59,547 nucleotides of DNA, taken from positions 62,001 through 121,547 of IMG/VR virus record IMGVR_UViG_3300014666_000034. One strand, given 5' to 3'. This stretch comes from an uncultured virus (IMG/VR IMGVR_UViG_3300014666_000034). Taxonomy: Duplodnaviria; Heunggongvirae; Uroviricota; Caudoviricetes. The position numbers and the translations under genes are program-made. The notes under the pieces were generated by a model. The model ran no database searches. It saw only the letters and a program-made list of their open reading frames with translations, and had not been told where the DNA came from. This document shows, piece after piece, positions 1,340 to 27,055 of this stretch. Every line of letters begins with the position of its first letter. Within the stretch, counting starts at the first letter, position 1.

Positions 1340-1386
1340 AATTCTATAATACAAATAAAATTCTTATTTCAAAAGGAGGAAATAAT

Positions 1387-1653
1387 ATGAGCGAATATAA
1401 ATGTATTAGGGTAATAAATAAAGAATTATCAAAAGAAGACTTTAAAAAGGCATACAATTTTTTGTGTAAATTAGAAACTGGTATCATATCAGAAGACGGA
1501 TGTTCTATCTTATTTAGTGGAAAATCAGAAAAGAAACAAAGATTTTCAGTTGATTCAGGTTGTTACACTACGGAATTAAGGGCTTTTACACAGGCCGTAA
1601 AGTGGTATCTGGGAAAATATGAATATGGTGTAGAAGTTCATATTTGTGAATAA
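1387..1653 (+). CDS. Hypothetical protein
   Basis: RBS AAGGAGG; flanked by motif copies at 1356 and 1651. Confidence 0.7.
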   Translation: MSEYKCIRVINKELSKEDFKKAYNFLCKLETGIISEDGCSILFSGKSEKKQRFSVDSGCYTTELRAFTQAVKWYLGKYEYGVEVHICE

Positions 1654-1691
1654 AACTATTCTTTCAAGTGGAAAATATGGAGGTAAAAACA

Positions 1692-1886
1692 ATGAAGTTA
1701 AAAGACGCAAAGTTAGCATACGCAAATAATAAAATGGTGCAACACAAAGAGGAAGGCAGAATTTGTAATTATATTAGCTGTTTTGATGATGATGAGACGG
1801 GAGTATATTTAAAGCATACACATACTTTTATACCGTTGGAAAAACTTCAGCTATACAATGTACATGATTATTATAAATCATGTTAG
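1692..1886 (+). CDS. Hypothetical protein
   Basis: RBS GGAGGT before ATG 1692. Confidence 0.65.
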   Translation: MKLKDAKLAYANNKMVQHKEEGRICNYISCFDDDETGVYLKHTHTFIPLEKLQLYNVHDYYKSC

Positions 1887-1913
1887 AAAATAGTATATTT
1901 TATTTCCAGTCAG

Positions 1914-1950
1914 AAGCCATTAGAGAATATAACTCTAGTGGCTTTTATAG
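1914..1950 (+). terminator. Intrinsic terminator-like hairpin
   Basis: AAGCCATTAGAG/CTCTAGTGGCTT followed by TTATAG. Confidence 0.6.
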
Positions 1951-1991
1951 CGGGAATAACACGAAGAATAAATCGTATGGAGGATTATATC

Positions 1992-2567
1992 ATGAAAAAA
2001 GAATATACAGTAGAACAATCAGCAGAAAAAGTATGGTGGTATAAATTTGCAGAACCAAACGCAAAAGGCGAAACACTTACAATTGAATTATCATTATGTA
2101 CTAATTGGGGTGGAAATCGTGCGCTGCCTGTTTTATGGAAACAGCATGGATATATAGACAGGGTCTTAGAAACTTATTGGTGTATTTCAACATACGTGAC
2201 AGATACAGAGGGAAGAGGTTGGGGCGCATATAATCCACAAAGCAAACGGAGCGAAGACGGTAAACGTGCGGTTATAAATTTTAAATGGATGTTTGAAGCT
2301 ACAGAGGGCAATAGAGTAAAGTTGATTGATGAAGTATATAGGATGTTTTCAATGGCTACAGGCGAAACGGCTACAGAAGAAAAGTACAGGAAAGTTAGAG
2401 AGTATGCAGAAGAACGCAACATTGAAGTATTAACAGAAATGCCAGAAGGTTGGCTTGATCTTGGTTATTGCACTGCTCCTATTGGTTCAATATATGTTGG
2501 AAATATGAAAACCAATATTCATACATTGAGAGACGTGAATAGAAAAGAAGCGTTACTATTGGTTTAA
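1992..2567 (+). CDS. Hypothetical protein
   Basis: RBS GGAGG before ATG 1992. Confidence 0.75.
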   Translation: MKKEYTVEQSAEKVWWYKFAEPNAKGETLTIELSLCTNWGGNRALPVLWKQHGYIDRVLETYWCISTYVTDTEGRGWGAYNPQSKRSEDGKRAVINFKWMFEATEGNRVKLIDEVYRMFSMATGETATEEKYRKVREYAEERNIEVLTEMPEGWLDLGYCTAPIGSIYVGNMKTNIHTLRDVNRKEALLLV

Positions 2568-2612
2568 TGATGTATAAACCACGATTTGACATAGAAAGGG
2601 TTGGTATAAAAT

Positions 2613-2795
2613 ATGGCAAGATACAATAGAACAAGTTTTTCTGCTTATTTAGAGGATTGCGACTATAAAGGATATAAGACATATATTTGGATTGAGAACA
2701 TGAAAATACGTTATTTTTATTTACAAACAGCGGAGGACCACACAAAGACTTTTGATACTCTTGCAGATTTATATGATTACATCGATAACAAATAA
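2613..2795 (+). CDS. Hypothetical protein
   Basis: 60-aa ORF in gene run. Confidence 0.6.
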   Translation: MARYNRTSFSAYLEDCDYKGYKTYIWIENMKIRYFYLQTAEDHTKTFDTLADLYDYIDNK

Positions 2796-2815
2796 AAGCA
2801 TAGGAGGAATAAACC

Positions 2816-3460
2816 ATGTTACCATACATCAGAAGCAACGCAAGTTTTTATAATCATATTGCAGAAGAATTTTTCACAGTTACATGTCAAGCTGCAACAA
2901 AAGAAGAGTATGAAAAATTATTCTTTTCTTTTTGTAAAAGATGGCAGAGAGAACTTACCAATAATGACATTTTATCTTATTATATAGAATCAGGAGAAAT
3001 GGAACCAGATACAATCCAGGAAATCAGACAGTTTTATATTGACAATGCGGAACAATTCCAGAAGGCAATTATTAACGCAAACTTGATTATTGGGAAGAAA
3101 TATACACTTGTTTATATGAATGAATTTGGATTCCCAGTAGCTGATAAAATCGTGTTTAAGGGCGTTTCGCCATGTCAGTATGCACAATATACCGATGCTA
3201 TTAAACTAAAGGCCAGAAGAGCAAGAAAACGCACTGATATGTATATAAACTTCTATGATTGCAGTATGGCAATATATGAAGGTTGGAACGATCTACCGGA
3301 AACGGTATCACATGAAAAAGTAGGTGAATACCTATATAGGTCAAGATATGCTTGTTTTGATGCAAGGTATTTTGATGATTGTGTTAATTATTTTGGTAAG
3401 CCAATAGTTGAATATAGGAACTTTAAAGTGAGGGAATCAGACGGAAAAACATTTGCATAG
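2816..3460 (+). CDS. Hypothetical protein
   Basis: 214 aa, RBS AGGAGG. Confidence 0.8.
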   Translation: MLPYIRSNASFYNHIAEEFFTVTCQAATKEEYEKLFFSFCKRWQRELTNNDILSYYIESGEMEPDTIQEIRQFYIDNAEQFQKAIINANLIIGKKYTLVYMNEFGFPVADKIVFKGVSPCQYAQYTDAIKLKARRARKRTDMYINFYDCSMAIYEGWNDLPETVSHEKVGEYLYRSRYACFDARYFDDCVNYFGKPIVEYRNFKVRESDGKTFA

Positions 3461-3476
3461 AAGGAATGGTGATGAT

Positions 3477-3794
3477 ATGAAAAAAGTAACTTTTGTTATA
3501 GATGATATAGAGTATTTTAGAAATCTTTATAAGGATCAATTAACAGAAAAACAATTCGATGAAATTAAGAACGATCTGAAATCGTTTAAAGCGGTTTATA
3601 CACTTATTGGAAATCAGAATCCAGACAAATATATATTGACTACATCAGAAGGAGATAAGTTAAATATAAACGATTTAAACGGCTATCAAAGGGGCTGCGT
3701 TTTAAATGACTGTCATGCTTATTATAATGGAAAACGTGATTTTGAGGGAAATGGCCCTTGTGGAGTGATAGAGATAACCGAAGAAACGGTTTAG
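3477..3794 (+). CDS. Hypothetical protein
   Basis: ORF with GGTGA RBS. Confidence 0.7.
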   Translation: MKKVTFVIDDIEYFRNLYKDQLTEKQFDEIKNDLKSFKAVYTLIGNQNPDKYILTTSEGDKLNINDLNGYQRGCVLNDCHAYYNGKRDFEGNGPCGVIEITEETV

Positions 3795-3834
3795 GTGCCA
3801 TAAAAAGTAAGTTTCCTTTGGAAATGGAGGTAAT

Positions 3835-4071
3835 ATGAAACGCAAGACATACGACAACGTTTTAAAAGCAGGTAAATTAATACAGAAAAAGGGATATGAC
3901 GAAAAGGAGGCATTAGAAATTGCAGTTAAATTCTTTGACAATCTACCGAAAGAGAAGGATGTTGAATTTCTAATAGATAGGATGGCAACTAAAGAAAGGT
4001 GGTTAGATGATCAACAGAAATATGGATATTTATTTCAGGGCGGAATGAAAAGTTATCCAGCTGGATATTAG
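3835..4071 (+). CDS. Hypothetical protein
   Basis: RBS GGAGGT; bounded by motifs 3801 and 4074. Confidence 0.7.
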   Translation: MKRKTYDNVLKAGKLIQKKGYDEKEALEIAVKFFDNLPKEKDVEFLIDRMATKERWLDDQQKYGYLFQGGMKSYPAGY

Positions 4072-4156
4072 GATGAAATGCACGTTTGATGGTGAGCGAT
4101 CGGAAAATATTTAACCGGTTGCTTTTATTATGCTCAAAATCAGGAAGGAGATTGTA

Positions 4157-4507
4157 ATGGAGAAGTTTACAAATAAAGATCTGGAAATTATCAGCAATGG
4201 TTTATTATACCTTATTCGGAATGCAGGGAAGGCAAAGGAGCTTGTGCTTGATAGCGCTTCACTGAATAGCATTGATGAATATATGAGAACTTTACAGGTG
4301 CTTAATTCGAAGGTCTGTAGATTAGATAGAGAATATGAGCATAAATCATTATGCTGCCTAAACTGTAGATTTTATGACATGAATGATCAAAATAATGCCT
4401 TTGGGACGTGTGAGCCACAAGACGAAGACTTTCATTGTACACATGAGTGCAATCTATCTCAAGAGGATCTTAAAGAATTGGAATGTCTCACAGGACACAG
4501 TAGGTAA
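4157..4507 (+). CDS. Hypothetical protein with Cys-rich C-terminus
   Basis: RBS AAGGAG; CCLNC...C...C...C. Confidence 0.7.
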   Translation: MEKFTNKDLEIISNGLLYLIRNAGKAKELVLDSASLNSIDEYMRTLQVLNSKVCRLDREYEHKSLCCLNCRFYDMNDQNNAFGTCEPQDEDFHCTHECNLSQEDLKELECLTGHSR

Positions 4508-4538
4508 TATGAAATACATGATTTATTCCCTTTAAAGA

Positions 4539-4829
4539 ATGGAGAATGACATGAGAACAAAAACGTTAAATAATGCGAAGTTTATTGTCACTGTAGAAAG
4601 TGATAAAAAGACGCGAACAATAAAAACCAGTTCAATCCTTGATAATAGAACACAAAAGAATTTAACAGAAGATTATATACATGAACGTGGAATTGAGTAT
4701 TTTTTAAATATGAATGATTTAAAAGAAACATTGAACTGGAATCTAAATGGAGACAGCGAAAAATATCAGTTTAAATGGGGGCAGTCAGGAAGTAAAACAA
4801 CAGAGGGGCGAGCTTACATTTTTGATTGA
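4539..4829 (+). CDS. Hypothetical protein
   Basis: Bounded by motifs 4510 and 4827; stop inside motif. Confidence 0.65.
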   Translation: MENDMRTKTLNNAKFIVTVESDKKTRTIKTSSILDNRTQKNLTEDYIHERGIEYFLNMNDLKETLNWNLNGDSEKYQFKWGQSGSKTTEGRAYIFD

Positions 4830-4854
4830 AAAGCACATTTTAAGGGAGGATTTT

Positions 4855-5031
4855 ATGATATTAGCACAACTAAATAAGTATTACAAACTTTTAGGAAGCA
4901 TTTTGCCTGTGCTTTCTATTTTTGTGTTCTTTAAACTGAATGACCAGGACGGAAACTGGACGCTGGCAGCATTGCTGATAATTGTAAGCGCAGTTTTATT
5001 TGCACAGACCGGAGGATTAAAACATGAATGA
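4855..5031 (+). CDS. Small two-helix membrane protein
   Basis: RBS GGGAGG; two hydrophobic segments. Confidence 0.65.
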   Translation: MILAQLNKYYKLLGSILPVLSIFVFFKLNDQDGNWTLAALLIIVSAVLFAQTGGLKHE

Positions 5032-5155
5032 CAATATAAAATTTCATTACATGAAGAACAAGGAAGGAAAAATTGAAATGTATGCAAATGGTGTATACAT
5101 AAACACGTTTGAAAACTTCACCGAGATTTTCGCCTTGCATTGCATTATATCTTAA
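5024..5155 (+). CDS. 43-aa hypothetical protein (below track cutoff)
   Basis: RBS GGAGG at 5011; MNDNIKFHYMKNKEGKIEMYANG... Confidence 0.5.
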   Translation: MNDNIKFHYMKNKEGKIEMYANGVYINTFENFTEIFALHCIIS

Positions 5156-5160
5156 TACAT

Positions 5161-5308
5161 AGCCTTGTCGGTGATCCGGAAGGATAGGCCGTGCTGCGAA
5201 AGTAAACAAGGCATTCCCGTCAGTCTGAAAGTGATTGCTGCTTACCACAGGATAATTAGTGGTTGATCTGACTTAGGTCACTAACCGCACATAATTAGCG
5301 GTAGATTT
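5161..5308 (+). ncRNA. Candidate structured RNA (GC-rich intergenic, multi-hairpin)
   Basis: GCCTTGT/ACAAGGC outer stem enclosing ATCC-GGAA-GGAT and TGC-GAAA-GTA tetraloop hairpins; further TGAC-TTAG-GTCA and ACCGC/GCGGT stems; no plus-strand ORF. Confidence 0.45.
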
Positions 5309-5327
5309 AATATAGGAGGTGTTTTGT

Positions 5328-5516
5328 ATGGGATATGGAGAATTAGAACAGTGCAAGGATTTTGATAATCTGAGGGCAGTGTTTGATGATGATATGCTTA
5401 ACTATTATGAAAAGCAGCTAGAGTGCTACTTAAATGGATCAGAAGAAAGGCCAGTGGTTGCTTGTTGGTGGGAAGGGACAATGAGCACAGGTGAGTTTAT
5501 AAATCAGTGTTCATAA
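5328..5516 (+). CDS. Hypothetical protein
   Basis: RBS AGGAGGTG. Confidence 0.65.
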   Translation: MGYGELEQCKDFDNLRAVFDDDMLNYYEKQLECYLNGSEERPVVACWWEGTMSTGEFINQCS

Positions 5517-5533
5517 AAGAAAGGGGTTCAGTA

Positions 5534-5725
5534 ATGGAGAAAGCAAACAAAAATATAGAAACTTTAATTGATATGATTATAACTTTACGAAAACAGCAAG
5601 GAGTGGGTTATTGTTGTGATCCTGAATCGCAGGCTGACGGATTGTGTTTTCATGATTGTAATGGATGTAAAGAGACGTTTTATCAAATAATGAAAAATAG
5701 AATGATGGAAACATATTGTGTATAG
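5534..5725 (+). CDS. Small Cys-rich hypothetical protein
   Basis: CC..C..C..C; stop inside motif 5723. Confidence 0.6.
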   Translation: MEKANKNIETLIDMIITLRKQQGVGYCCDPESQADGLCFHDCNGCKETFYQIMKNRMMETYCV

Positions 5726-5775
5726 AAGTGTGCTTTTATTTGGAGAATATAATAATCGAAAGAGAGGTAGTCAAT

Positions 5776-6309
5776 ATGGGTGTAGATACGAAGGGATTAT
5801 TAAGAGGTAAAGTTGAGCATGAGGAAATTTTAAATTTCATAAGACAGAAATTTGATGAAGGTGCCAAATCGTTTATTGAATTAAAAGACTATGGTTCAGA
5901 TATAAAACACGATTGGATCAAAGAAAGATATGATAATACTGGCAAATGGTTAACGTGGTCTGGTTTTATATACTTTAATGACGGGACGGAAGATCGGAGT
6001 ATTTTCTATTGTTATACGAACCATAACTCATATGAAAATCTCGACTATTATACTGAATACGGATTAGAAGAAATGGTGAAGTCAGAAACCACATATTTGA
6101 GTTTGAGTCGTTATGGAAATTCAAAGGAAATAATGAAAGCAATTGTATCCCATTTTAGTGGATGGATTGACGAAGATGACTGCGACAACGAACCCTACTA
6201 TCCTGTTATCAAGAACTCAGATGGCTCGATTAATCCGGTAATTAGAGTTACTATGGACGAAATATATGAGAAGTTTGGCGGCGTAGTTCTTATACAGAAA
6301 AATAAATAA
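5776..6309 (+). CDS. Hypothetical protein
   Basis: RBS GAGGT; bounded by motifs 5723 and 6307. Confidence 0.75.
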   Translation: MGVDTKGLLRGKVEHEEILNFIRQKFDEGAKSFIELKDYGSDIKHDWIKERYDNTGKWLTWSGFIYFNDGTEDRSIFYCYTNHNSYENLDYYTEYGLEEMVKSETTYLSLSRYGNSKEIMKAIVSHFSGWIDEDDCDNEPYYPVIKNSDGSINPVIRVTMDEIYEKFGGVVLIQKNK

Positions 6310-6333
6310 ATTGCTGATTTGAAGGGAGAAGGT

Positions 6334-6612
6334 ATGAACGATTATAAGATGGAGTATGTAAAAACCCTAAGAGACGAGGATATGGTGTGGATTCAAAAAG
6401 ACGGTGACGATAATGAGATTAGGAAGCTCATAGGTATTGATTCAGCTTTAAAATACGGAATAGGGGATAGCTTGGTGCATGTAAATATCGCAACAAAACC
6501 AAATGATGTACTAAAATGTGAATGGAATGGAAGAACATTTTATTATGTAGTAATCAATCCGGTAAATGAATTAATGGCTTTTTGCTATACGTTGTATCCG
6601 ATTTCTGAATAA
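6334..6612 (+). CDS. Hypothetical protein
   Basis: RBS GGGAG. Confidence 0.65.
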   Translation: MNDYKMEYVKTLRDEDMVWIQKDGDDNEIRKLIGIDSALKYGIGDSLVHVNIATKPNDVLKCEWNGRTFYYVVINPVNELMAFCYTLYPISE

Positions 6613-6623
6613 AATGAGGTTAA

Positions 6624-6890
6624 ATGAAAATGTGTAAATTTTGTGAGCGTAGACAGGATATTAAATTCGGTTGGCAGCAACCGTCACTTGAGAACCTACA
6701 TGGGAATATTGTGAAAGAATTAGAAGTTAAGGCCGTAATCCATGATTACCAGACCACTAATCCGGAATTGATTATAACTTCTAATAGATTTTTTCCTGAT
6801 TTAATTGGAACAGATGGAGTAGCCACAATTTATATTCCTATAAAATTTTGCCCTAACTGTGGTAGAGAATTGGGAAAACAAAGCAGATAG
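6624..6890 (+). CDS. Zinc-ribbon protein (CxxC...CPxCG), paralog of 7862-8152
   Basis: CKFC...PELII...FCPNCG. Confidence 0.7.
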   Translation: MKMCKFCERRQDIKFGWQQPSLENLHGNIVKELEVKAVIHDYQTTNPELIITSNRFFPDLIGTDGVATIYIPIKFCPNCGRELGKQSR

Positions 6891-6926
6891 AAGAGATATT
6901 TCAAGCCGAAAGGAGAAGACTAACTT

Positions 6927-7628
6927 ATGAAAGATGATATGAATTTAGTTTATATAGACGCATTACTATATGCGATGGAGGGAGAAGATCCTTCGAAGGC
7001 AATTGAAAATCAGGAAGCAAGAGAGCAAAGGTGGGCGCTTCGGGAAATGAAGTTGCCAATAAAGGCCAATGAACATAGTGTCCCTGATAAATACAGATTC
7101 ATTAATGTCTCAGACGATATGGATTATGAAATGAGAAGAAAAATCGTTGATGGAAACAATGCTATCTACACAAGAAATCAATATTCTAAGATGGGAATAA
7201 ACATTGTTGAAGATTATGATGACTTGTTTTATACTGTGCAGCTTCCGGTAGGTTGGGAAATCAAACCAACAGAACATAATATGTGGAATGAAGTATTTGA
7301 TATTAAAGGCAGAAAACGCATGAATTATTTTTATAAAGGTGCCTTTTATGATAGAAGTGCCTTTGTAAATTTTAATACCAGATATACTGTGGGAGTAGTT
7401 CCTTTTGATGAATACGAGTTAGACGCATCTTATGAAGAAAGAAGTATTAATCCATGGTATGGAGTGGTTTATGATTGTGGTAACGAAATATTCAGAACAA
7501 CAGGTGAAGTAAGTCCAGACGGATCAGTTAAAGTATGGGATATCCAAGACAATCAGAAGAAACTTGCTTTAGAATTTGTAAATAAAAAATACCCTCATTG
7601 GGAAGACATTAATTCATATTGGGATTAA
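6927..7628 (+). CDS. Hypothetical phage protein
   Basis: 233 aa, RBS AAGGAG; bounded by motifs 6888 and 7629. Confidence 0.8.
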   Translation: MKDDMNLVYIDALLYAMEGEDPSKAIENQEAREQRWALREMKLPIKANEHSVPDKYRFINVSDDMDYEMRRKIVDGNNAIYTRNQYSKMGINIVEDYDDLFYTVQLPVGWEIKPTEHNMWNEVFDIKGRKRMNYFYKGAFYDRSAFVNFNTRYTVGVVPFDEYELDASYEERSINPWYGVVYDCGNEIFRTTGEVSPDGSVKVWDIQDNQKKLALEFVNKKYPHWEDINSYWD

Positions 7629-7664
7629 TAAAAACAAGATTTAATTAAATAGGAGGATAACTAT

Positions 7665-7829
7665 ATGGAAGAATTAATAACAAGAATCCAAGAGGCATAT
7701 GCAGATTGTACTACGGTTAAGGAAGTAGCTGAGGTATATGCATTAATAAAAATGGAGAATCAAAAGCAAATGGAACTTACAATGGATTATAGAGTTAATT
7801 CGGAGATTGAAGAGGCAAACTGCGAATAA
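7665..7829 (+). CDS. 54-aa hypothetical protein (below track cutoff)
   Basis: RBS AGGAGG; stop is first triplet of motif 7827. Confidence 0.6.
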   Translation: MEELITRIQEAYADCTTVKEVAEVYALIKMENQKQMELTMDYRVNSEIEEANCE

Positions 7830-7861
7830 ATCCACAATTTTAACCAAAAAGAGGTGATACT

Positions 7862-8152
7862 ATGTGCAAATGGTGTGATAGAAAAAGATTATTGCCTGAG
7901 AAGTATCCAAGCCATGCGGATAATGTATATCATGATTCGTATATGATGATTATGAATTACAATAGGAATGTTCCAGAACTGATTGTTAGTTCCCAGCATG
8001 GATTGAATTTTTATTTCAGCATTAATTATTGTCCCATATGTGGCAAAAAGTTACTAACAGATAGAGCAAAAATGGATAGGAAAAGACATATAAGAATTGG
8101 ATTTAGTGATCTGTTTGGAAGGATCGGAGACAGTCGAAATAGTAAGCTATAA
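7862..8152 (+). CDS. Zinc-ribbon protein, paralog of 6624-6890
   Basis: CKWC...PELIV...YCPICG. Confidence 0.7.
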   Translation: MCKWCDRKRLLPEKYPSHADNVYHDSYMMIMNYNRNVPELIVSSQHGLNFYFSINYCPICGKKLLTDRAKMDRKRHIRIGFSDLFGRIGDSRNSKL

Positions 8153-8184
8153 TGAAATCAGGAATTGAAAGGAGTAAAAATACT

Positions 8185-8403
8185 ATGAATTATGGAGTGG
8201 CATATTGTAGTTCAAATGGAAGCGCATTTTCAAAAACAGAGCCATACATTGAAGAAGCTGGAACCACATTAAAAGAATGTGAAGTGGTTTTAAATGAATT
8301 GGTAAAAGTGGGATGCTGCCAGTTAACACCTTTTGAGATGAAAGATGTCTTAGAAAGTTATACGTGGGAATACGTGAACAAGCACAAAGTATTCTTGCTT
8401 TGA
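8185..8403 (+). CDS. Hypothetical protein
   Basis: RBS AAGGAG; stop inside motif 8401. Confidence 0.65.
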   Translation: MNYGVAYCSSNGSAFSKTEPYIEEAGTTLKECEVVLNELVKVGCCQLTPFEMKDVLESYTWEYVNKHKVFLL

Positions 8404-8717
8404 AATAAGTGATTTATATGACGATTTGGAAAGGCTGATCTTTTGGGAAGATAGATTAAATTCTGAAATGTGGCAAGAAGAAAAGATTTCAGAGTATATG
8501 TATCTCAAAAATGTAATTGATAGATTGTTAAATAAATGATTTTAAGCAAAGATATGATTAATGAGAATGGAGAAAGATAATATGAATAAAGATAAACAGC
8601 CGGTATTATATCCCGGAGACAAGATAATTGTAATGAAAACGATCCACATGTATGGTATGATAATATGAAAGAAGCACTTGAAAATGCAGGATTTACATTG
8701 TCTAAGGAGGTGGCATA

Positions 8718-8969
8718 ATGGCAGGACTTGAATTATTTTTAGGGCTGGCTTTTATAATTTATGTTTATCGTCAATGTACAAAAGGTAGCCGCCCTCCAAA
8801 GCCTGGAACTCAGGAGGCCGCTGAATGGTTGCATAATGGTGATAAATATTGGATTGCAGCAAATAAACTTCAGTACCCTACTCTCTACAAGGATGCCCCT
8901 ATTACACCTTCTGAAAAGGCAGCTTATAATAAAGTAGAAAAAGAAAATGGAAGACCTGGAATTGATTAA
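8718..8969 (+). CDS. Small membrane-anchored protein
   Basis: RBS AAGGAGGTG; N-terminal hydrophobic helix. Confidence 0.7.
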   Translation: MAGLELFLGLAFIIYVYRQCTKGSRPPKPGTQEAAEWLHNGDKYWIAANKLQYPTLYKDAPITPSEKAAYNKVEKENGRPGID

Positions 8970-9014
8970 TTAAAATTGCAAGCAATCCTAGATTTTATAG
9001 AAAGTGGTGAGAAC

Positions 9015-9251
9015 ATGTGGAAATATTATATAGAAATTTTGACTGGTAGCTGTACAGGAGATTATGTTGAAGGAAAAGAGGTCCCAGGTGATGGTATTCC
9101 CGTTTGTGCCGATCTAGCAGTAGCTAAGTGGTTTGATTCACCAGATGAATTAAATAAGTGGGCAAAAGAAAATACATCGTTAAATCTTGAAGAGGGTGAG
9201 TATGCAATTTATGGAGTATATTATCCTGAACTAAAGGAGGAAGTGGTATGA
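9015..9251 (+). CDS. Hypothetical protein
   Basis: RBS GGTGAG. Confidence 0.6.
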   Translation: MWKYYIEILTGSCTGDYVEGKEVPGDGIPVCADLAVAKWFDSPDELNKWAKENTSLNLEEGEYAIYGVYYPELKEEVV

Positions 9252-9540
9252 CAATTTGGGAAGCGGAAAAGGAAATTTTGAAGGCGCAAACACCACAGGA
9301 GATGGATGAAATTACAAATGGTCTTGATAAAAAGGACTTACAAAACATTATTTAATTGCTTGTAGATAGAATGACTCCTGAGAATGTGGAAATAAATCGC
9401 TTTCTAAATAGAAATGAGACTATCAATGCGGATTTTGATGTCAATGATATCACTGAAGGAAAGAGTAAAGAATTTATAAGACAGTTGATCGATAAACATT
9501 ACAACTAAATCGACATTTAATTAAGAAATGGAGGGCATGA

Positions 9541-9753
9541 ATGAGTAATTGGAATTTATTTACTAAGAAGAAGCCAGATCGCTATGAGCCTGTACTTTGC
9601 TTTTTAAATAATGGTCAACAAATTATCCTGGCACTAGATGAGGATAATCAGACATGGGCTATGTATAACGGAGATGAACTAGAAGATGCTCATGTAGTGG
9701 CTTGGCAAGATCTTGAAGCGAGAGAAGAGATAGAGAAGCAATTAACAAAGTAG
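9541..9753 (+). CDS. DUF551-like small phage protein
   Basis: W...KKP...VL...W...VVAWQ pattern. Confidence 0.55.
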   Translation: MSNWNLFTKKKPDRYEPVLCFLNNGQQIILALDEDNQTWAMYNGDELEDAHVVAWQDLEAREEIEKQLTK

Positions 9754-9764
9754 GAGATGACATT

Positions 9765-9941
9765 ATGGGAGCTTTAGCATTTATAGGATTACTTGTGGGT
9801 TTGTTTTTATGGGCAAAAGAGAGTATGACTCCAAATACGCCGGCTGAGAATACAAGGGATCTCGATGGGATTATGAGGGATTCCAGTAAATATTCGAAAA
9901 AGGAAATGCAAAATAGAATACGAAACGGACACTATAAATAA
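9765..9941 (+). CDS. 58-aa membrane-anchored protein (below track cutoff)
   Basis: RBS AGGAG; MGALAFIGLLVGLFLWAKES... Confidence 0.55.
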   Translation: MGALAFIGLLVGLFLWAKESMTPNTPAENTRDLDGIMRDSSKYSKKEMQNRIRNGHYK

Positions 9942-10029
9942 TATGAGCGGAATATATCGTTGAAGGCCACTAGATGCTAAAAATCTGGTGGCTTTTGTAT
10001 TGCCAAAATAGTATAATGGAGGAAGGTTT

Positions 10030-10221
10030 ATGAGTGGGTTAGAAAGATATGAGAAAATAGGAACATTCCTGTGTGGAAATGAATTCATGGTGACAATCAA
10101 GGCAGAACATGGGACTCATGTAATGACGATGGAGGAGTGGGATCAGATCGTGAGAGGATTGGGATATAGACTGATCCCTACTGGAATGAGATATTTTAGA
10201 AAAGAGAATAGTGTGGCATAG
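10030..10221 (+). CDS. Hypothetical protein
   Basis: RBS GGAGG. Confidence 0.6.
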   Translation: MSGLERYEKIGTFLCGNEFMVTIKAEHGTHVMTMEEWDQIVRGLGYRLIPTGMRYFRKENSVA

Positions 10222-10336
10222 AGATAAAAGGATTATTTTATAGTGAGATTGATGCTATGTTGCTTTTGAATTAGGAAAATTTCGAAGTACAAGCGCTTTA
10301 TAGTTATAGAATCTGCATTTAGAAAGGAGTAAAGTT

Positions 10337-10753
10337 ATGCTAAACGAGAATCAGATTGTTGAAATCGTATGCGACTATTTGAGAAAAACTGGTTACAAAG
10401 TTGAAGAGTCACGAACGACTTACGATAGGGGTTATGATATTGTTGCAAGCAATTGGAAAGGAATAAAACTTATAATAGAGGCTAAAGGTGCTACCAGTTC
10501 AAAACCAAGCTCTAAACTATATAGCAAGGAATTTAATAGAAAGCAAGTTGTTAATCATGTTTCCAGGGCGCTTTACTCTACGGTTAAAGTTATAAATAAG
10601 TACCCTAAATGTGAAGTAGGAATTGCATTGCCACATAACGAATTACATATTAAAGCTATCAAAGATATACAAAATGTTGTTGAACTTCTAAAAATTAAGG
10701 TATACTGGGTTACTGACAATGGAGAGGTGATTGTGGACAAAGAGGCAATCTAA
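10337..10753 (+). CDS. PD-(D/E)XK restriction-endonuclease-like protein (Mrr-cat-like)
   Basis: N-terminal E helix, GYDIVA, IIEAKG motif. Confidence 0.7.
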   Translation: MLNENQIVEIVCDYLRKTGYKVEESRTTYDRGYDIVASNWKGIKLIIEAKGATSSKPSSKLYSKEFNRKQVVNHVSRALYSTVKVINKYPKCEVGIALPHNELHIKAIKDIQNVVELLKIKVYWVTDNGEVIVDKEAI

Positions 10754-10928
10754 TGTAAATGGATCAACGGATTGAGTAAAAATGTGATTGTGTCAAACGG
10801 AGATATAGCCACAGTAGATGATGATATTTATGAAAGATGAGGTGTGTTTTTGTCATAAGGATAGTATTATCGGAAAATACCATTTTAAAGAAGAGTTATT
10901 GAAAATTGTTTCAGGGAGGAGGGCGAAA

Positions 10929-11288
10929 ATGATAAATAATTTTTTAAACAGGAACAATAATTTAGATTCTTTAATAATTTTAGCGATTGGAATCATTATA
11001 CCATTTGTATCCAAATTAATATTTTCTCTTGCTTCTAAAGTAATAAAGAAGTTAGGTCATGTTATTAAATATGAATGTAGTAATTTTAAACGTAGAATGG
11101 CTGGAAAATATACTTTATATGAGATTGAAAAGATTAAAGAAAAACCTGAAAATAAAAGGAGTAAAAAAGAACAAAAGGCGTTAGAAGAATATGAAAAGAT
11201 TATGAAAAACATGGGGGAAGAAATTAGAAGTTTTTCTAACAAGATAAAAGTTATGAATAATGTTATTTCTAATAGAAATGAAAAATAA
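10929..11288 (+). CDS. Membrane-anchored hypothetical protein
   Basis: RBS GGGAGGAGG; one TM segment. Confidence 0.65.
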   Translation: MINNFLNRNNNLDSLIILAIGIIIPFVSKLIFSLASKVIKKLGHVIKYECSNFKRRMAGKYTLYEIEKIKEKPENKRSKKEQKALEEYEKIMKNMGEEIRSFSNKIKVMNNVISNRNEK

Positions 11289-11313
11289 AATAATAGTTTA
11301 ATGGAGGTTATAA

Positions 11314-11751
11314 ATGGCAAGAGTATTTGCAATGCCAGCTTTAAGCTTGGATGATAAGTTATATGATTTTGAGAAAGCTATTAAAGAAAATGCTGAATTT
11401 GTCTATATTTCAATTGATTCATTTAAAAATAAGTGCTCTAATTTGGAAGAAGCAAAAGCTCACGATTATATCATCATAAGATATACTCCTGAACGCAATC
11501 AGAGGGTTGCATATATTTTTATGGTAATGTCTGAGGTAGAATCTATTACAATAAAAGAACTTCCTGATTATGGATATTGGGAAGATGACAGTCTTATAAG
11601 GCCGATGAAAACAGGGAGATTTCTAAAGACAAGATTTATTGAACAGTGCGATTCTGAAAAGTATTGTAATTATAGAGATGGTCGTATATATCATGTAACA
11701 GATGAAGGATTCATTAAGTTTAAAGATGATTTCAATATATTGTATTATTAA
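11314..11751 (+). CDS. Hypothetical protein
   Basis: RBS GGAGGT; bounded by motifs 11286 and 11766. Confidence 0.75.
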   Translation: MARVFAMPALSLDDKLYDFEKAIKENAEFVYISIDSFKNKCSNLEEAKAHDYIIIRYTPERNQRVAYIFMVMSEVESITIKELPDYGYWEDDSLIRPMKTGRFLKTRFIEQCDSEKYCNYRDGRIYHVTDEGFIKFKDDFNILYY

Positions 11752-11798
11752 TTTTGATGCATCAATAAAATTTGAGATTTATAAAGAAAGAAGAATTT

Positions 11799-12692
11799 AT
11801 GAAAGATCTGAAAAGGGATTATCTAATTAAAACGTTCTCTCGAACAAAACGCAAAGATTATGAGAATTATATTATTAATGGAATTTGGCATAAACTGAAT
11901 AGATTTGATATACAGCCAATAACTCAACAATATGTTAAGCGAAGTGATGGTAAATATGCTTTAATAGATTTGTACTTTCCTCAAATAAATCTGGGTATAG
12001 AAATTGACGAAGAATATCATGTTAATAATAATGAACATGATCTATTACGGGAAATGACTATGGAACAGTTACTTAGTTCCTGTGTAGAGACAAAAGATTT
12101 TAAGCTACTTCGAGTTAAAGCATACGGAAGCTTAAATGATATCAACTTGCAGATCGATGAAGTAATAAGAGAGGTTGAACTAAAAGCTATAGAATACGAT
12201 ATTGACGAATGGGATATTTATAAAAATCCTGTCGACCAAGTTATTAAAAATAAAAGATTGTCAGTAAAGGATAATTTATTGTTTGATACCATAGGACAAA
12301 TATGTTTTTGCTTCGGGATAAATAAACCTAAAACTCAGCGTTCGTATTCTTATATCGGAAATAATTATCAACTTTTGTGTCAAAAGCTTGCTATTCAAGT
12401 TGGTAATGATTTTAAGTCAGTATCAAATGGCTGGATAAATATTTTATCTGATGATTGGAATACAATTAGTGAATCCAATGACGATAAATCTGTAATTCGC
12501 ACCAATAGTTCAATATCTTATCCAGAACGCAAAAGAGTTGTTTTTGCTAAAAGTAAAGATACTTTAGGGCGAAATAAATATAGGTTTATTGGTATTTTTA
12601 AACTTAATGTTGACGAATCAAAAAGCGGAGAAGCTATAATATACAATCGAGTTGCTGAAGAACTTGATTTAAGCATATTTTTAATGAGCTAA
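11799..12692 (+). CDS. AbaSI/PvuRts1I-family modification-dependent (5hmC) restriction endonuclease
   Basis: YLIKTFSR..RK.YENYII...QQYV...IDLYFPQINLGIEIDEEYH nuclease signature and C-terminal W.N...RVVFAK.KD.LG...YRF.G of the SRA-like domain. Confidence 0.85.
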   Translation: MKDLKRDYLIKTFSRTKRKDYENYIINGIWHKLNRFDIQPITQQYVKRSDGKYALIDLYFPQINLGIEIDEEYHVNNNEHDLLREMTMEQLLSSCVETKDFKLLRVKAYGSLNDINLQIDEVIREVELKAIEYDIDEWDIYKNPVDQVIKNKRLSVKDNLLFDTIGQICFCFGINKPKTQRSYSYIGNNYQLLCQKLAIQVGNDFKSVSNGWINILSDDWNTISESNDDKSVIRTNSSISYPERKRVVFAKSKDTLGRNKYRFIGIFKLNVDESKSGEAIIYNRVAEELDLSIFLMS

Positions 12693-12738
12693 CTCAATAT
12701 CGATGAAATCCAAGGTTCATATGGAGAAGGGGCATAAT

Positions 12739-13086
12739 ATGTACATAATAAAAGATAGCAATGAAAGGTATTTTGTGAACTGGATCGGCAGCACTCCGGT
12801 GTTTAATGGGGATATATCTTCTGCAAAGGTATTTAATGAGGTTGAAGCAAACGATGCTTTAAAATCCCTAAATAGAATAAATAAAAACAAGTACGAAAAA
12901 ATATTGTGCAATAAAACTCTTATAAAGTCAGGGGTAAACAGAAACAACCCTGAGTGGTATCGTCAGCAGATAGAAGAATTACTAAAGCAATATGAACAGA
13001 AATCAAAAGACACTTATGATTCAGATGGAGCATATCTGGTTTACGAACAAATTGTTGACGAGTTGGGATCAATATTATACGAATAA
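12739..13086 (+). CDS. Hypothetical protein (last unit of array 1)
   Basis: Bounded by motifs 12704 and 13084. Confidence 0.7.
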   Translation: MYIIKDSNERYFVNWIGSTPVFNGDISSAKVFNEVEANDALKSLNRINKNKYEKILCNKTLIKSGVNRNNPEWYRQQIEELLKQYEQKSKDTYDSDGAYLVYEQIVDELGSILYE

Positions 13087-13121
13087 AACTAGGTTTTCAA
13101 ATGAGTTTATGGGTAGTAAAT

Positions 13122-13158
13122 AGGGCATTGGAGAATAATAATCCAGTGCCTTTTATAG
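13122..13158 (+). terminator. Terminator-like hairpin before recombinase
   Basis: AGGGCATTGGA/TCCAGTGCCTT then TTATAG. Confidence 0.6.
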
Positions 13159-13221
13159 TGCTTATAAAGGATATTTTTTTAATTATAACTAGAGAAATAA
13201 TAATAGATGGAGGGAAATATT

Positions 13222-14118
13222 ATGTCAGCGTCAACATTACCAGTAGCCCATGAAATGGGAGAAGTGTTATACTTAAGTGATTACATGGATGAAAAGGAGC
13301 AGGTGCAACAGATGATTCACTTAAAAGCAGATGGAACCGCAGATCTCCGATATGAAAATAAAGACAATGGAGGTAAGGCCTCTACTATGGACTGTTTGTA
13401 CACAGAAGAAGAAATAGAAAGCGTATATAATGTGTTTAAAAGAAAATGTATTAATGCAGAGAGTTTGGCAAAAGCAAAATCTAATATGAGAAATTTGGTG
13501 ATGTACGTATGTGCAATAAATATTGGATTGCGGGTAGGCGATTTATGCTCATTACGATGGAAAAATGTTTTCGATGAAGAATGGAATATAAAGAGCAAAG
13601 AAGATTTTGTTCCTCAAAAGACCATTAAACGAGATAAGGCAGGGAAAACAGTCAGTAGAAAACATATCACCTTAAGATATAATAGCACATTTAAACGATG
13701 TCTATTAGAGTATTTGAAGTGGAAAAGGTTTTACGATTATGAGCCAGAGCTTGATGATTTTATATTTACGAGTCAAAAAGAACATTATAATGAAGACACT
13801 GAGAAAATGGAAAATTGCATCATGCCAAAGGAGTGGCATAAAGTTGTACAAAAAGTATGTAAAGAAGCTGGAATTAAGCAGAAGATAGGGACTCATGGTT
13901 TAAGAAAGACATATGGGCATAGATACTATATGACCTGTGAGAATAAATCAGATGCTTTAATTCAATTAATGACAATATTTGGACATTCAGATATGCGCAT
14001 CACACTTGGATATATTTGTATAACTGGAAAAGAGATTGAAGAAAATCAGGAAAAGATGTGCACTTTTGGCGATTTTGAAACTATTGTGTGGGACGACTAT
14101 TCTAAAGTGGTAGATTGA
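13222..14118 (+). CDS. Tyrosine recombinase (catalytic domain, short N-terminus)
   Basis: GLRVGDL (R), QKT (K), HGLRKT (HxxR), FGHSD (H), TLGYI (Y); RBS GGAGGG. Confidence 0.9.
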   Translation: MSASTLPVAHEMGEVLYLSDYMDEKEQVQQMIHLKADGTADLRYENKDNGGKASTMDCLYTEEEIESVYNVFKRKCINAESLAKAKSNMRNLVMYVCAINIGLRVGDLCSLRWKNVFDEEWNIKSKEDFVPQKTIKRDKAGKTVSRKHITLRYNSTFKRCLLEYLKWKRFYDYEPELDDFIFTSQKEHYNEDTEKMENCIMPKEWHKVVQKVCKEAGIKQKIGTHGLRKTYGHRYYMTCENKSDALIQLMTIFGHSDMRITLGYICITGKEIEENQEKMCTFGDFETIVWDDYSKVVD

Positions 14119-14656: not shown

Positions 14657-14782
14657 AAGAGATTACGTGTAATAAAGAGTTTCATTAGTAAGTGATATGG
14701 AGGAACAGTCCAGGTGATTAAAATTGAAACTATAGAACTCGACATAAAAGACAGATCAGAATATTAATGTAAAGACGATAGG

Positions 14783-15061
14783 TTATTCACTACCGTCTTT
14801 TTCTTTATCCTTTTGTTCATCACGTTGTATTTTGTCGACATATAAGAGTAATCTGCTGATCTCTGGATCTTCTGAAACAATAATATCGTTGGGGGTGCAT
14901 TTTAAAATTTTACACATAGCTTCAAGTGTTTCAAGTTTAATACTGGTAGAATCGCCAGCATACATTTTATCTACTGTTTTATATGTTACATCAAGACGCT
15001 TTGCGAGTTCATACCTTGTAATGCCCTTTTTGTCAAGAATCTCTTTAATATTTAGTCGCAC
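14783..15061 (-). CDS. XRE/Cro-CI HTH regulator, probable phage repressor
   Basis: KGITRYELAKRLDV...IKLETLEAMCKILKCTPNDI; RBS GAGGG; divergent from downstream operon. Confidence 0.85.
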   Translation of the reverse strand: MRLNIKEILDKKGITRYELAKRLDVTYKTVDKMYAGDSTSIKLETLEAMCKILKCTPNDIIVSEDPEISRLLLYVDKIQRDEQKDKEKDGSE

Positions 15062-15256: not shown

Positions 15257-15637
15257 ATGGAACTTCACAGATACGATATTATAGAGGCAGAAATTGAATA
15301 TGGAACAGGTTCAATACAGAAAAAGAAACGTCCATATGTGATTGTGAGCAATGAGCATGGTACAGCAAATGCTCGTATCATCACTATAATGCCTTTAACC
15401 CATATAATTAAGAAAGAGTATTTGCCGGTACACGAATGCTTAGAAGCAGAATCAGAAAACGGATTATCAACTTATTCTATGATTCTAGGGGAACAACCAC
15501 AAACCATATGTAAAGACGAGGTAATTCGGAAACTTGGATCTGTTGTAGATGGCAAACAAAGAAATATGATTAATAAGGTTTGTTTTAATACATTTTTCTT
15601 TGGTGAAAAAATTGATTGGGAGGAGATATTCGCATGA
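15257..15637 (+). CDS. PemK/MazF-family endoribonuclease
   Basis: RYDI...GSIQKKKRPYVIVSN...IMPLT...S.IL.EQ..TI.K. Confidence 0.85.
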   Translation: MELHRYDIIEAEIEYGTGSIQKKKRPYVIVSNEHGTANARIITIMPLTHIIKKEYLPVHECLEAESENGLSTYSMILGEQPQTICKDEVIRKLGSVVDGKQRNMINKVCFNTFFFGEKIDWEEIFA

Positions 15638-24188: not shown

Positions 24189-24229
24189 CCGATAAAAACG
24201 GAATTTCAATGGAGAAAGGAGATTAAAAT

Positions 24230-24478
24230 ATGATGGCATGTTTGTTGATATTAACTACATCGATATGTGGAATTGGTGTCTTAGGTGGAGTACTTCCACT
24301 TGGAATAGTATTTATTTTATCTTTAGTTGGATGTCTATATTGTTTTATCACGTTGATAAGTTTAAAGCTAAGCGAACTTGGAATAGCACTTCTTGTAAGT
24401 AACGGTATCTTTCTTACATATACAAGCTTCTATCTATTTTTAGGAATAGATTTACTTGTGAAAATTGGGTTAAAATGA
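24230..24478 (+). CDS. Small multi-TM membrane protein
   Basis: Almost wholly hydrophobic; bounded by motifs 24193 and 24471. Confidence 0.7.
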   Translation: MMACLLILTTSICGIGVLGGVLPLGIVFILSLVGCLYCFITLISLKLSELGIALLVSNGIFLTYTSFYLFLGIDLLVKIGLK

Positions 24479-24509
24479 ACCTTTCAACGAGATGATGGGA
24501 GAAAAAATA

Positions 24510-24803
24510 ATGGGATATTATGATGATGATAAAGTAGAGAAGAAAATTGTAAAAATCAAAGTTGAATTCGAGGCAACGCCTATCAGACATTTAGCACTAC
24601 AATGTCCAGATTGTAAAGATTGGTTTTATGGAGCTGATATTTACGAAGAATGGTGCAGTTACAAATCTGATATATTCTGGAATGAATGTAAGTGTCCAAA
24701 ATGTGGCAGTCGATTTAAAGTTTCTGAGGATAGCAACCTCGATAGCGCAAACTTTCCGGAATTTTATAAAGAATGCTTACAGAAAAAAGAGGTGTGGGAA
24801 TAA
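24510..24803 (+). CDS. Zinc-ribbon protein
   Basis: CPDC...CPKC. Confidence 0.7.
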   Translation: MGYYDDDKVEKKIVKIKVEFEATPIRHLALQCPDCKDWFYGADIYEEWCSYKSDIFWNECKCPKCGSRFKVSEDSNLDSANFPEFYKECLQKKEVWE

Positions 24804-24834
24804 TAAAATGGTTCTTCTATTGGAGGAAATAAGA

Positions 24835-24993
24835 ATGGATATGAGCGATTGGATTTGTGATCATTTCAAATATATGGAAGTCAAACGTTATCCAGAAGCA
24901 GATGTTAATATTTACGTATGCGAGAGAACTGGAAAGAAGTTTGATGAATTTCATAGCCCGTGTAATAACTGTAAATATGACACATCAAAATAA
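24835..24993 (+). CDS. Small Cys-rich protein
   Basis: RBS GGAGG; stop inside motif 24991. Confidence 0.55.
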   Translation: MDMSDWICDHFKYMEVKRYPEADVNIYVCERTGKKFDEFHSPCNNCKYDTSK

Positions 24994-25240
24994 AATAAAT
25001 TTTTCATCGTGAAAGGATATGTGTAATGGAGGGATATTGTCAGCAATGTATCTGTACAGATAGACAAAAGTCGCATAAAGAGTTTAAGAATTATGAAATT
25101 ATGATTTATTGTACTAGCAAAAAATGTGATGTTAATTGCTATGGTAAACAAGCGTGTTTCGCAGAAAATAATAATTGGCAACATTTGAACGATTAAAGAG
25201 GGATTTCAAAGCCGAAAACGGCAGAAAGAAAGAGGTTAAT

Positions 25241-25678
25241 ATGAATTTTGTTGAAGAGATTATTAAGAATACAAAGGAAAATGAATTAAGGGTATATCTT
25301 GAAAAGATATCAAAGGCATCATTGGAAGGTAGAACAGATTGTTTCTTGACTTGTAGTGAAGGATTAATGACAAAAGACACGATGAAGAAAATCGTTAATG
25401 AGTATGGGTTTGATTTGATCATTACATATCATGACATCATCACAACTTTTGTGAAATGTTATTTCGGAGACATTGCCAGTGGGAAAATTACTATTGAACA
25501 TTCCGGTGAAAATGAAAGTGGCATTGATATAGACGACTTCTATGGAGATCCAGAGAAGTACAGATGGAATAATAATATTCCTAAATCTATACATGTCGCA
25601 AAAGAAGATCCGGATTTACCAGAAGCACCACCAATTCAGATGGTTACTGAAACATTTTCTGGAATTTCAGTTGAATAG
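25241..25678 (+). CDS. Hypothetical protein
   Basis: RBS GAGGT; bounded by motifs 25193 and 25680. Confidence 0.7.
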   Translation: MNFVEEIIKNTKENELRVYLEKISKASLEGRTDCFLTCSEGLMTKDTMKKIVNEYGFDLIITYHDIITTFVKCYFGDIASGKITIEHSGENESGIDIDDFYGDPEKYRWNNNIPKSIHVAKEDPDLPEAPPIQMVTETFSGISVE

Positions 25679-25874
25679 ATGAATTCAAAATTTGAAAGGA
25701 GAAACATAATGATATGGGATATTTGCAAGACGCCAGGGATCGTGAAAGTCATTCCAGCAATTTTATGGCACAAAGAGAAGAAACTGTTGGAATTTGGCTG
25801 GTTGAAATGGTCATACGTAATTAAGCTAAAGTAAGTTGAAAGGTTGTTTTTATTGGTGAAAAAGAAAGGAGATT

Positions 25875-26234
25875 ATGGATAAAATAAATCCTATTAAGGA
25901 AGATGATTTTTATAAGGAATATGACGGACACGATGAATACAGATTAATCATTGATGTAGTTGATACAGATGAATGTTGCAATATTGATCCGATTGGGTTG
26001 TGTACTCCCGAAGACTGTATGTCATGTAAAAATGCCAGGATTAAGTTGATTAGGACTGATGGTGTTAATATGCGTGAAGATGCAGAATTGAATATTGGTT
26101 ATGAACAAAAGAAGCACCGAAAATATGACAAATATAAGAGCAATCCAATCTATTACTTAGAAGAAATGTTTGGGGTTAAATTTAGTTCATGGCAGAAAAA
26201 ATTGGTTCTGAAATTTTTAAAGTTGAAAGATTAA
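25875..26234 (+). CDS. Hypothetical protein
   Basis: RBS AAGGAG; bounded by motifs 25837 and 26224. Confidence 0.7.
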   Translation: MDKINPIKEDDFYKEYDGHDEYRLIIDVVDTDECCNIDPIGLCTPEDCMSCKNARIKLIRTDGVNMREDAELNIGYEQKKHRKYDKYKSNPIYYLEEMFGVKFSSWQKKLVLKFLKLKD

Positions 26235-26261
26235 TTTCGTGGGAGAAAAGAAGGGAGAATA

Positions 26262-26465: not shown

Positions 26466-26496
26466 ACATAATCATTAAGAAAAGAGGTGAATTATT

Positions 26497-26793: not shown

Positions 26794-26794
26794 T

Positions 26795-26983: not shown

Positions 26984-27055
26984 GCGATGAATCATGTCTT
27001 TCAACTGCTTTTGGAGGTGATATAAATAAAACGAAACAGAGAATCACAATGTAGG

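Follow-up and report, generated by a model that had tools for sequence, protein, structure and literature searches.

Short spacer-coded sites bound exchangeable modules in SPbeta-like phages, and an adjoining core-binding-less recombinase is probably not their enzyme

A short site made of two inverted arms and a 6-bp spacer bounds swappable modules in the phages compared here. Its spacer is kept where the sequence on one side has been replaced, is unique within a genome, and keeps its order between genomes. The site system is real and is wider than the window, i.e. the whole 59,547-nt stretch of DNA analysed, which is the right half of a 121.5-kb source record classed as a provirus. The source genome is an SPbeta-like phage of Clostridia. 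The explanation favoured here, with a probability of roughly 0.55, has two parts: the sites would be barcoded exchange sites, and a 298-aa tyrosine recombinase gene adjoining one array of them (the ORF, below) would encode a separate enzyme. Judged from genome comparisons, the ORF is probably not the enzyme that shuffles its neighbouring genes.

Retention and order of the site spacers

The site has the form T[AG]AAA-N6-TTT[TC]A. Strict copies number 28 over the 121.5-kb genome, where shuffled sequence averages 5.2 (maximum 9), and enrichment is found only at the 6-nt spacer, other spacer lengths giving 0–8 copies. Features of the window that concern the sites are as follows.

1356..13099, + strand: array 1, small accessory genes separated by sites (strict sites at 1356, 1651, 4827, 10225 and 13084)
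13084..13099, + strand: last site of array 1, TAAAA CTAGGT TTTCA, 122 nt before an ATG
10225..11781, + strand: replaced slot between sites 10225 and 11766, where a related contig has 1,998 other bases
24193..56651, + strand: sixteen more strict sites in replication and accessory regions (motif search)

Seven further strict sites are found outside the window, and the system is genome-wide. Array 1 also holds 17 one-mismatch sites, some of them by chance. Relatives switch homology at array-1 sites, and the CTAGGT spacer of site 13084 recurs at locus L070 with different downstream sequence. The joint of the replaced slot runs from 10221 to 11768 and is seen in one contig, the left end of which stops 4 nt before the site. 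Two array-1 cassettes encode a Mrr-like nuclease (10337-10753) and a PvuRts1I-SRA modification-dependent nuclease (11772-12692), each likely defence cargo.

A genome was called site-rich when it carried at least 12 sites and twice the control number, or at least 8 and three times the control. Strict sites number 28–52 per genome. SPbeta has 36 (control 3) and phi3Ts 34 (control 5); the strict sites at 70–90 kb of SPbeta carry no annotation in the SPbeta record. The outer bases follow phage lineage, with TAAAA..TTTTA in Bacillus phages and TGAAA..TTTCA and AGAAA..TTTCT in two clostridial pools.

Sites sharing exactly one 45-nt flank were compared across ortholog loci of the ORF and ten whole or partial genomes. 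The spacer is identical in 197 of 264 such comparisons, which are independent by flank cluster and not phylogenetically, against a background of 11/19,993 random pairs. Where the downstream flank is common and the upstream flank unrelated, the spacer is identical in 104/145 cases and shows at most one mismatch in 135/145; with a common upstream flank the values are 93/119 and 111/119. Sequence identity drops to background immediately beyond the 16-bp site. On the side that is not shared, a different arm is seen in 59 of the 145 same-downstream and 55 of the 119 same-upstream comparisons, and positions 5 and 12 have an identity of 0.93–0.94 in the identical-spacer subset. Positions 2 and 15 vary independently (GC 182, GT 66, AC 53, AT 29), which argues that the site is not a hairpin; the spacer ends are paired in 17%. 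The original prediction that the motif bounds swappable modules is thus borne out, by the homology switches and by spacer retention at the sites.

Spacers are unique within a genome, with one repeat found across ten genomes. Their order between genomes gives rho 1.0 in 5 of 9 pairs, and the other pairs fit a circular permutation. SPbeta and phi3Ts have 23 spacers in common, in order (chance expectation 0.5, maximum 4), 14 of them with at least one non-homologous flank. Both flanks are unrelated at 15 of the 26 spacers shared by phages G053 and G054 and at 7 of the 9 shared by G068 and G074. Exact-identity blocks shared by SPbeta and phi3Ts have 26 ends, of which 7 are no more than 7 nt from a strict site and 19 are not at sites; the chance that a random position is within 3 nt of a strict site is 0.7%. 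A search for empty/filled pairs yielded six candidates, five of which are 1-nt register artefacts and one of which has a one-mismatch spacer; none of them has one and the same spacer at its three sites.

Spacer-matched crossover is an established property of tyrosine recombinases, and the features of a crossover site are found here: inverted arms, a fixed spacer (6–8 bp expected), and spacer identity kept across exchange. Since spacer retention and order fit spacer-matched crossover, the sites appear to behave as exchange points for slot replacement at heterospecific sites and not for integron insertion. The genome-wide distribution of sites, the unrepeated spacers and the lack of a clean empty/filled pair likewise argue against an integron-like system. 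In the proposed mechanism the motif would be an ordered series of heterospecific crossover sites, each of two short inverted arms and a 6-bp spacer. Two phage genomes in one cell, an infecting phage and a prophage, would cross over where their spacers match and nowhere else, and two such crossovers would replace the intervening DNA, a natural form of recombinase-mediated cassette exchange. Deletions would be avoided since no two sites within one genome match. The widely conserved YomM-like tyrosine recombinase, rather than the ORF, is the leading candidate for the enzyme of the exchange. The ORF would be a separate active mini recombinase lacking a core-binding domain and confined to a subset of the clostridial SPbeta-like phages. 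It would break and reseal DNA at its own site or small set of sites, in the manner of a resolvase acting on circular or multimeric phage DNA.

The recombinase beside array 1

The ORF and its surroundings in the window comprise the following features.

13222..14118, + strand: tyrosine recombinase, catalytic domain only, PHROG 216 family (Pfam, PHROG and structural model)
13531..14013, + strand: catalytic residues R104, K133, H225, R228, H255 and Y264 (homolog alignment)
13122..13156, + strand: terminator-like hairpin and U-run between array 1 and the ORF (stem about 13122-13152, z -5.7)
14771..14802, no strand assigned: bidirectional terminator-like hairpin ending the convergent HTH gene (folding; also in G068)
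14783..15061, - strand: Cro/C1-type HTH gene, convergent with the recombinase gene (family in 19 of 26 sampled loci)
15257..15637, + strand: PemK/MazF-like gene, conserved neighbour (family in 23 of 26 sampled loci)
58294..59547, + strand: 417-aa integrase at the prophage end (record of provirus class)

The reading frame has 303 aa from its first ATG (13207) and 298 aa from ATG 13222, which is preceded by a GGAGGG Shine-Dalgarno sequence. Its start had been placed about 120 bp past the last motif of array 1, and the measured distance is 122 nt. Pfam yields Phage_integrase as the sole match (residues 78–265), without a SAM-like match, and PHROG 216 is the best PHROG match. The full R-K-HxxR-H-Y set, also part of the original prediction, is near-invariant: R104, K133, H225 and R228 are present in 90/90 aligned homologs, and H255 and Y264 in 89/90 with one gap each. 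RKHRHY is kept in all intact ortholog loci; an ortholog at L052 is truncated to 181 aa. The dN/dS values, 0.04–0.14 in seven pairs, indicate purifying selection. With invariant residues and such ratios the ORF looks catalytically competent, and the claim of an intact enzyme holds at the level of predicted activity. It had been described as the second tyrosine recombinase, which is incorrect as the genome has three: the 417-aa integrase, the 298-aa ORF, and a 323-aa YomM-like protein encoded outside the window.

An AlphaFold model of the ORF has a pLDDT of 86 overall. About 55 N-terminal residues show low pLDDT and poor conservation, and the catalytic (CAT) domain spans residues 53–282, with its start at 53–56. 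These residues align to catalytic domains only, namely those of XerA, XerH, lambda Int, Cre and IntI. XerA gives Z 17.6 (rmsd 3.8, 180 residues aligned), and SroF/YopR gives Z 10.4–11.0. A core-binding profile search gave a best E-value of 0.012 among 109 rows. Because the modelled residues match catalytic domains alone, the core-binding domain is, on the model, absent along with the arm-binding one. Thus the short N-terminus without an arm-binding domain was seen correctly, but it amounts to about 55 residues and a core-binding domain is missing as well, unlike IntI and Xer. Simple recombinases such as Xer and IntI consist of core-binding and CAT domains, according to the available sections of PMC8138268. 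The ORF scores 21.7 bits against the integron integrase model TIGR02249 (cut-off 265) and 22.9 bits against the NCBIfam XerD equivalog (cut-off 329.6), below the XerC and XerD cut-offs. A PDB sequence search reached only E 0.01–0.03 at best, and a viral fold search and the ESM Atlas returned only unnamed integrases. In one ortholog clade (L003, L036, L037, L050, L051, L064, L065) a stand-alone 101-aa open reading frame resembling a core-binding domain is found 2.3–3.3 kb upstream of the recombinase gene; it is absent here, is a possible partner, and one member seeded the profile.

Orthologs of the ORF were found in 90–200-kb phages, and Blautia, Lacrimispora and Eubacterium carry others as part of prophages. 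The slot is fixed: the ORF is the last rightward gene, followed by the convergent HTH gene and a block of MazF-like, sigma-like and GmrSD/ParB-like genes. The upstream neighbours vary among orthologs. Of 62 ortholog loci, 15 have a site no more than 200 bp upstream of the gene, the median distance being 738 bp. The likening of this layout to intI beside its array is not supported, given that abutment occurs only in those 15 loci, that sites are genome-wide and that spacers are unrepeated. The predicted hairpin before the ORF is present (z -5.7) but is not the gene's own, as its family has three copies in the window (1918, 9968 and 13124; z -4.5 to -5.8). In public contigs the copy at 13124 is joined to many different flanks. 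No convincing promoter was found between this hairpin and the ORF start. Farther downstream, two LexA-box-like sequences flank and overlap a TTGACA-17-TATAAT promoter at window positions 15926-15977, which precedes a 60-aa open reading frame and the GmrSD/ParB-like genes. This is a candidate SOS-induced switch like SPbeta sar/yopT.

Co-occurrence was followed in both directions. Among 39 ortholog-bearing records 26 are site-rich, 18 by the main motif and 8 by the variant RGAAA-N6-TTTCY, and G012, also ortholog-bearing, is site-positive by de novo search. The reverse test used 42 long records out of 114 loci obtained with terminase and capsid queries. Here 26/42 are site-rich, and a strong profile match to the ORF family is found in 3/42, with distant core-binding-less relatives in 10 more, and G048 has one too; the family search of these 42 was loosely pre-filtered, and absence is claimed only for records searched again with hmmsearch --max. 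By that search nine site-rich genomes (G041, G053, G054, G056, G065, G068, G074, SPbeta and phi3Ts) have no close or broad member of the ORF family. The ORF-less pairs G053/G054, G068/G074 and SPbeta/phi3Ts show collinear spacer sharing. With the ORF family absent from site-rich phages of the same spacer behaviour, the ORF is not required. The proposal that the ORF is a cassette recombinase is contradicted by these nine genomes, motif-rich phages without the ORF family being the reverse case that the original prediction had itself named as refuting. Two other arguments were tried and dropped. Absence of the strict motif from one ortholog clade is no refutation, as variant outer bases are present there. 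Co-evolution of the site variant with the ORF is not seen either: the RGAAA-N6-TTTCY variant does not follow the ORF, since it also turns up in G047-G051 and G055, phages that have no closer relative than distant 325–348-aa proteins or gave no match.

What the ORF does instead was weighed among several readings. Most likely it acts on a site or sites of its own beside the lysogeny switch. The invariant catalytic residues argue that it is an enzyme. Its nearest outgroup consists of 190–210-aa enzymes on plasmid- or ICE-like DNA (RepA_N, ArdC and type I R-M neighbours), and this setting, together with inverted repeats upstream of the outgroup genes, suggests a resolvase at its own site. By this analogy the ORF may be of the resolvase type, with circular or multimeric phage DNA as its substrate, a tentative assignment that we hold at somewhat less than even chances. 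A further reading is that the ORF recombines the sites in its own lineage, alone or with the YomM-like enzyme as partner, and that other phages use other enzymes. The intact catalytic set is in its favour, as is the site-richness of 26 of the 39 ortholog-bearing records by two patterns, plus G012; within these 39, only one clade of the ORF protein goes with the RGAAA-N6-TTTCY variant, and the ortholog-free phages tested share few cassettes with the gene pool of the window, so separate enzymes would be possible. Against this stand the nine site-rich genomes without the family, the same variant in G047-G051 and G055, and distant relatives in G045, G046, G079 and G080, partial records that are not site-rich by either pattern. 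A YomM-like gene is also present in all 14 near-complete ortholog-bearing records, and the core-binding domain is lacking, which leaves this reading rather unlikely.

The position of the ORF recalls a regulator. In SPbeta the order is yopR, terminator, convergent HTH gene yopS and divergent yopT, and many orthologs of the ORF show recombinase, hairpin, convergent HTH gene and divergent MazF-like gene. A search of 10 ortholog-bearing genomes turned up no MrpR-like protein, and the upstream terminator insulates the ORF from the array. The ORF could on these grounds be a DNA-binding lysogeny regulator, a positional analogue of SPbeta MrpR/SroF, for which we see a minor chance. However, MrpR has a core-binding domain and has lost its catalytic residues, as described in the available sections of PMC10516654, and the ORF is the opposite in both respects, with a fold nearer to XerA (Z 17.6) than to SroF/YopR (Z 10.4–11.0). 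G041 and G068 have neither the ORF family nor MrpR, and the stretch from hairpin to start offers no convincing promoter. In G053 and G056 MrpR is encoded downstream of the MazF-like gene, which is not the slot of the ORF. A role as invertase in a phase-variable switch, as for the small enzymes FimB/FimE or RecV, is considered very improbable. The core-binding-less architecture and below-cut-off matches of 191–193-aa relatives to PRK09870/PRK09871 would fit, but the ORF itself has no such match at E <= 0.001, and the seven minus-strand matches in an all-against-all comparison of ortholog loci include no inversion flanking the gene. No invertible segment between inverted repeats was found within 10 kb in ortholog loci.

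A cognate site of the ORF was looked for at ortholog loci, and none was found; there is no conserved upstream site. The GACGATA hairpin (14771) was rejected as a target because it is also present in G068, which has no recombinase of the ORF family, and the upstream hairpin (13122) because it belongs to a repeated family. GAGAATA was set aside since it is enriched also in G068 and G048 and is weak in the source genome. This word is frequent in intergenic DNA of G023, G030, G032, G048 and G068 (20–33 copies; about 5–7 expected where computed). In phages that carry MrpR, different words (ATACATA, CAAAATG) are enriched. Such words, GAGAATA included, are possible operators or promoters. The inverted repeats upstream of the 190–210-aa relatives (L076, L077, L082, L084, L085, L097, L098, L100, L110, L111), read by eye, are candidate cognate sites of those enzymes.

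Candidate enzymes for the sites

The YomM-like 323-aa enzyme is encoded at 38902-39873 of the source genome (G000). It groups with a member from G056 that shares 60% identity with SPbeta YomM; R, K, H and Y are conserved in the family. A YomM-like match (E <= 1e-83) is found in 24 of 29 records that are at least 90% complete, though some of the 24 seeded the profile, and 20 of the 24 are site-rich by one or other of the two motif patterns. Four of the five records without a match are site-poor, three of these four being near-identical. By this co-occurrence the YomM-like recombinase is the best enzyme candidate for the sites, with about an even chance of being the right one. G065 (100% complete) is site-rich, 16 sites against 7 in the control, without a gene of the YomM clade. 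It has TAAAA-N6-TTTTA 15 times (1.0 expected), and only XerD-like and MrpR-like proteins are found there, without the ORF family. YomM types are mutually only about 20% identical, and the outer bases of the site do not line up cleanly with YomM type or with ORF clade. In G048 (57115-58148) the YomM-like gene is split into two open reading frames.

Three laboratory phi3Ts-SPbeta hybrids give no positive support for YomM: of 13 ancestry switches, 7 fall in short homology without a site and 6 inside long identical blocks where their position is unresolvable. The available sections of 10.1101/2020.05.06.055103 describe homologous recombination in these hybrids, consistent with the switch positions. 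Such ordinary homologous crossovers lend some weight to an alternative in which the motif would be retained for some other purpose, as a linker or a binding site, and microhomology or annealing-protein recombination at the 16 identical bases would exchange the modules. Identity limited to the 16-bp site is also what microhomology predicts. An AAA_24 protein, which we take to be a Sak4-like recombinase, is encoded at 30274, and a crossover needing 6–11 bp of identity would likewise keep spacers, a point against the main explanation. However, the unshared-side arms often differ, even at the base adjoining the spacer; spacers stay in order where both flanks are unrelated (15/26 in G053/G054 and 7/9 in G068/G074); and the strict 6-nt spacing and the one-copy-per-genome spacers are left unexplained. 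As to a binding site, the roughly 10 SPBRE peaks of MrpR, a figure from the available part of PMC10516654, are fewer than the 36 sites. We regard this alternative as unlikely, with perhaps one chance in five. A host-encoded recombinase or nuclease-ligase system acting at the sites would agree with outer bases that follow phage lineage rather than any phage recombinase, and with the sites of G065 in the absence of YomM. Here the arms are 5–6 bp, shorter than the 11-bp arms of dif and different from them in sequence, and a host enzyme is judged improbable.

The exchange-site explanation, extended to SPbeta-like phages from Bacillus to gut Lachnospiraceae, would give them dozens of barcoded modules that YomM, possibly with the ORF, swaps at matching barcodes between co-resident phages, i.e. 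a dedicated, programmed machine; for and against appear evenly balanced on this wider proposal. In the literature covered, mostly open-access texts, no description of the sites or of YomM function was found. The available sections of the main text of 10.1101/2021.11.22.469490 make no mention of yomM or a palindrome.

Comparison with known systems and genome context

Like integrons, the system has a tyrosine recombinase adjoining an array in which single, promoter-less genes are set apart by sites at their boundaries. Unlike integrons, the ORF has no core-binding domain and scores 21.7 against the IntI cut-off of 265, the sites do not pair as hairpins of the attC type, there is no insertion/excision signature, the order is fixed, the sites are genome-wide, and the adjoining enzyme is dispensable. 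Phage integrons are described in the available sections of PMC9892861.

In engineered cassette exchange with heterospecific lox sites, only matching spacers recombine. The present sites share with Cre/lox the inverted arms, the asymmetric spacer, exchange at matching spacers and replacement by two crossovers. They differ in that the system is natural, with 28–52 strict sites per genome, arms of 5–6 bp and an enzyme that is a candidate only. Many sites per replicon are also seen in the pdif/dif modules of Acinetobacter plasmids, in which cointegration and resolution at pdif yield hybrids (PMC9455709, available sections). The pdif sites, in contrast, resemble chromosomal dif and use host XerC/D, and those reported here are short, are found in phages and form one collinear series. 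The PeSL cassettes of T4-type phages are similar as repeated intergenic elements where modules shuffle, but PeSLs are promoter-terminator units, nearby copies of which recombine to mini-circles (PMC2839356, available sections); unique spacers would block the formation of such mini-circles here.

SPbeta MrpR/SroF (YopR) and YopP are comparable to the ORF in recombinase fold and in position before a convergent HTH gene. MrpR differs in having a core-binding domain, in lacking catalytic residues and in binding SPBRE, and no sequence match was found between MrpR/SroF and the ORF family. MrpR/SroF is a recombinase-fold repressor, as given in the available sections of PMC10516654, PMC8612738 and 10.1101/2025.11.27.690993. 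The short phage recombinases of PHROG 216 (phi3626, phiCD6356, Javan phages) and the 190–210-aa clostridial enzymes are likewise catalytic-domain-only and share motifs with the ORF, at 25–36% identity; the ORF clade adds about 50 N-terminal residues and is confined to 90–200-kb phages.

It has long been asked whether phages possess dedicated linkers for swapping modules. In this case a site with matching spacers in fixed order can be followed throughout a phage family to which the laboratory model SPbeta belongs. If the proposed exchange is correct, it would account for the sharing of capsid, terminase, polymerase, RNA polymerase and tail genes each with a different relative, with gene order kept. 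Many mutually orthogonal 16-bp sites would also make such a recombinase valuable for engineering. The ORF is of more limited import, being a predicted active core-binding-less recombinase beside a lysogeny switch.

Core genes of the source genome are strongly mosaic when compared with G010, G011, G023, G032 and G038. The RNA polymerase is 98% identical to that of G010 (compared over 120 of 127 kb), a tail gene 99.6% to G011, the capsid 85% to G023, the terminase 93% to G038 (compared over 100 of 165 kb), and the polymerase 79% to G032. The window also carries a tRNA-Gln(TTG) gene at 16265-16337. Two open reading frames, 27961-28695 and 45067-45846, have 66-nt repeats in common that are 73% identical and are probably paralogs.
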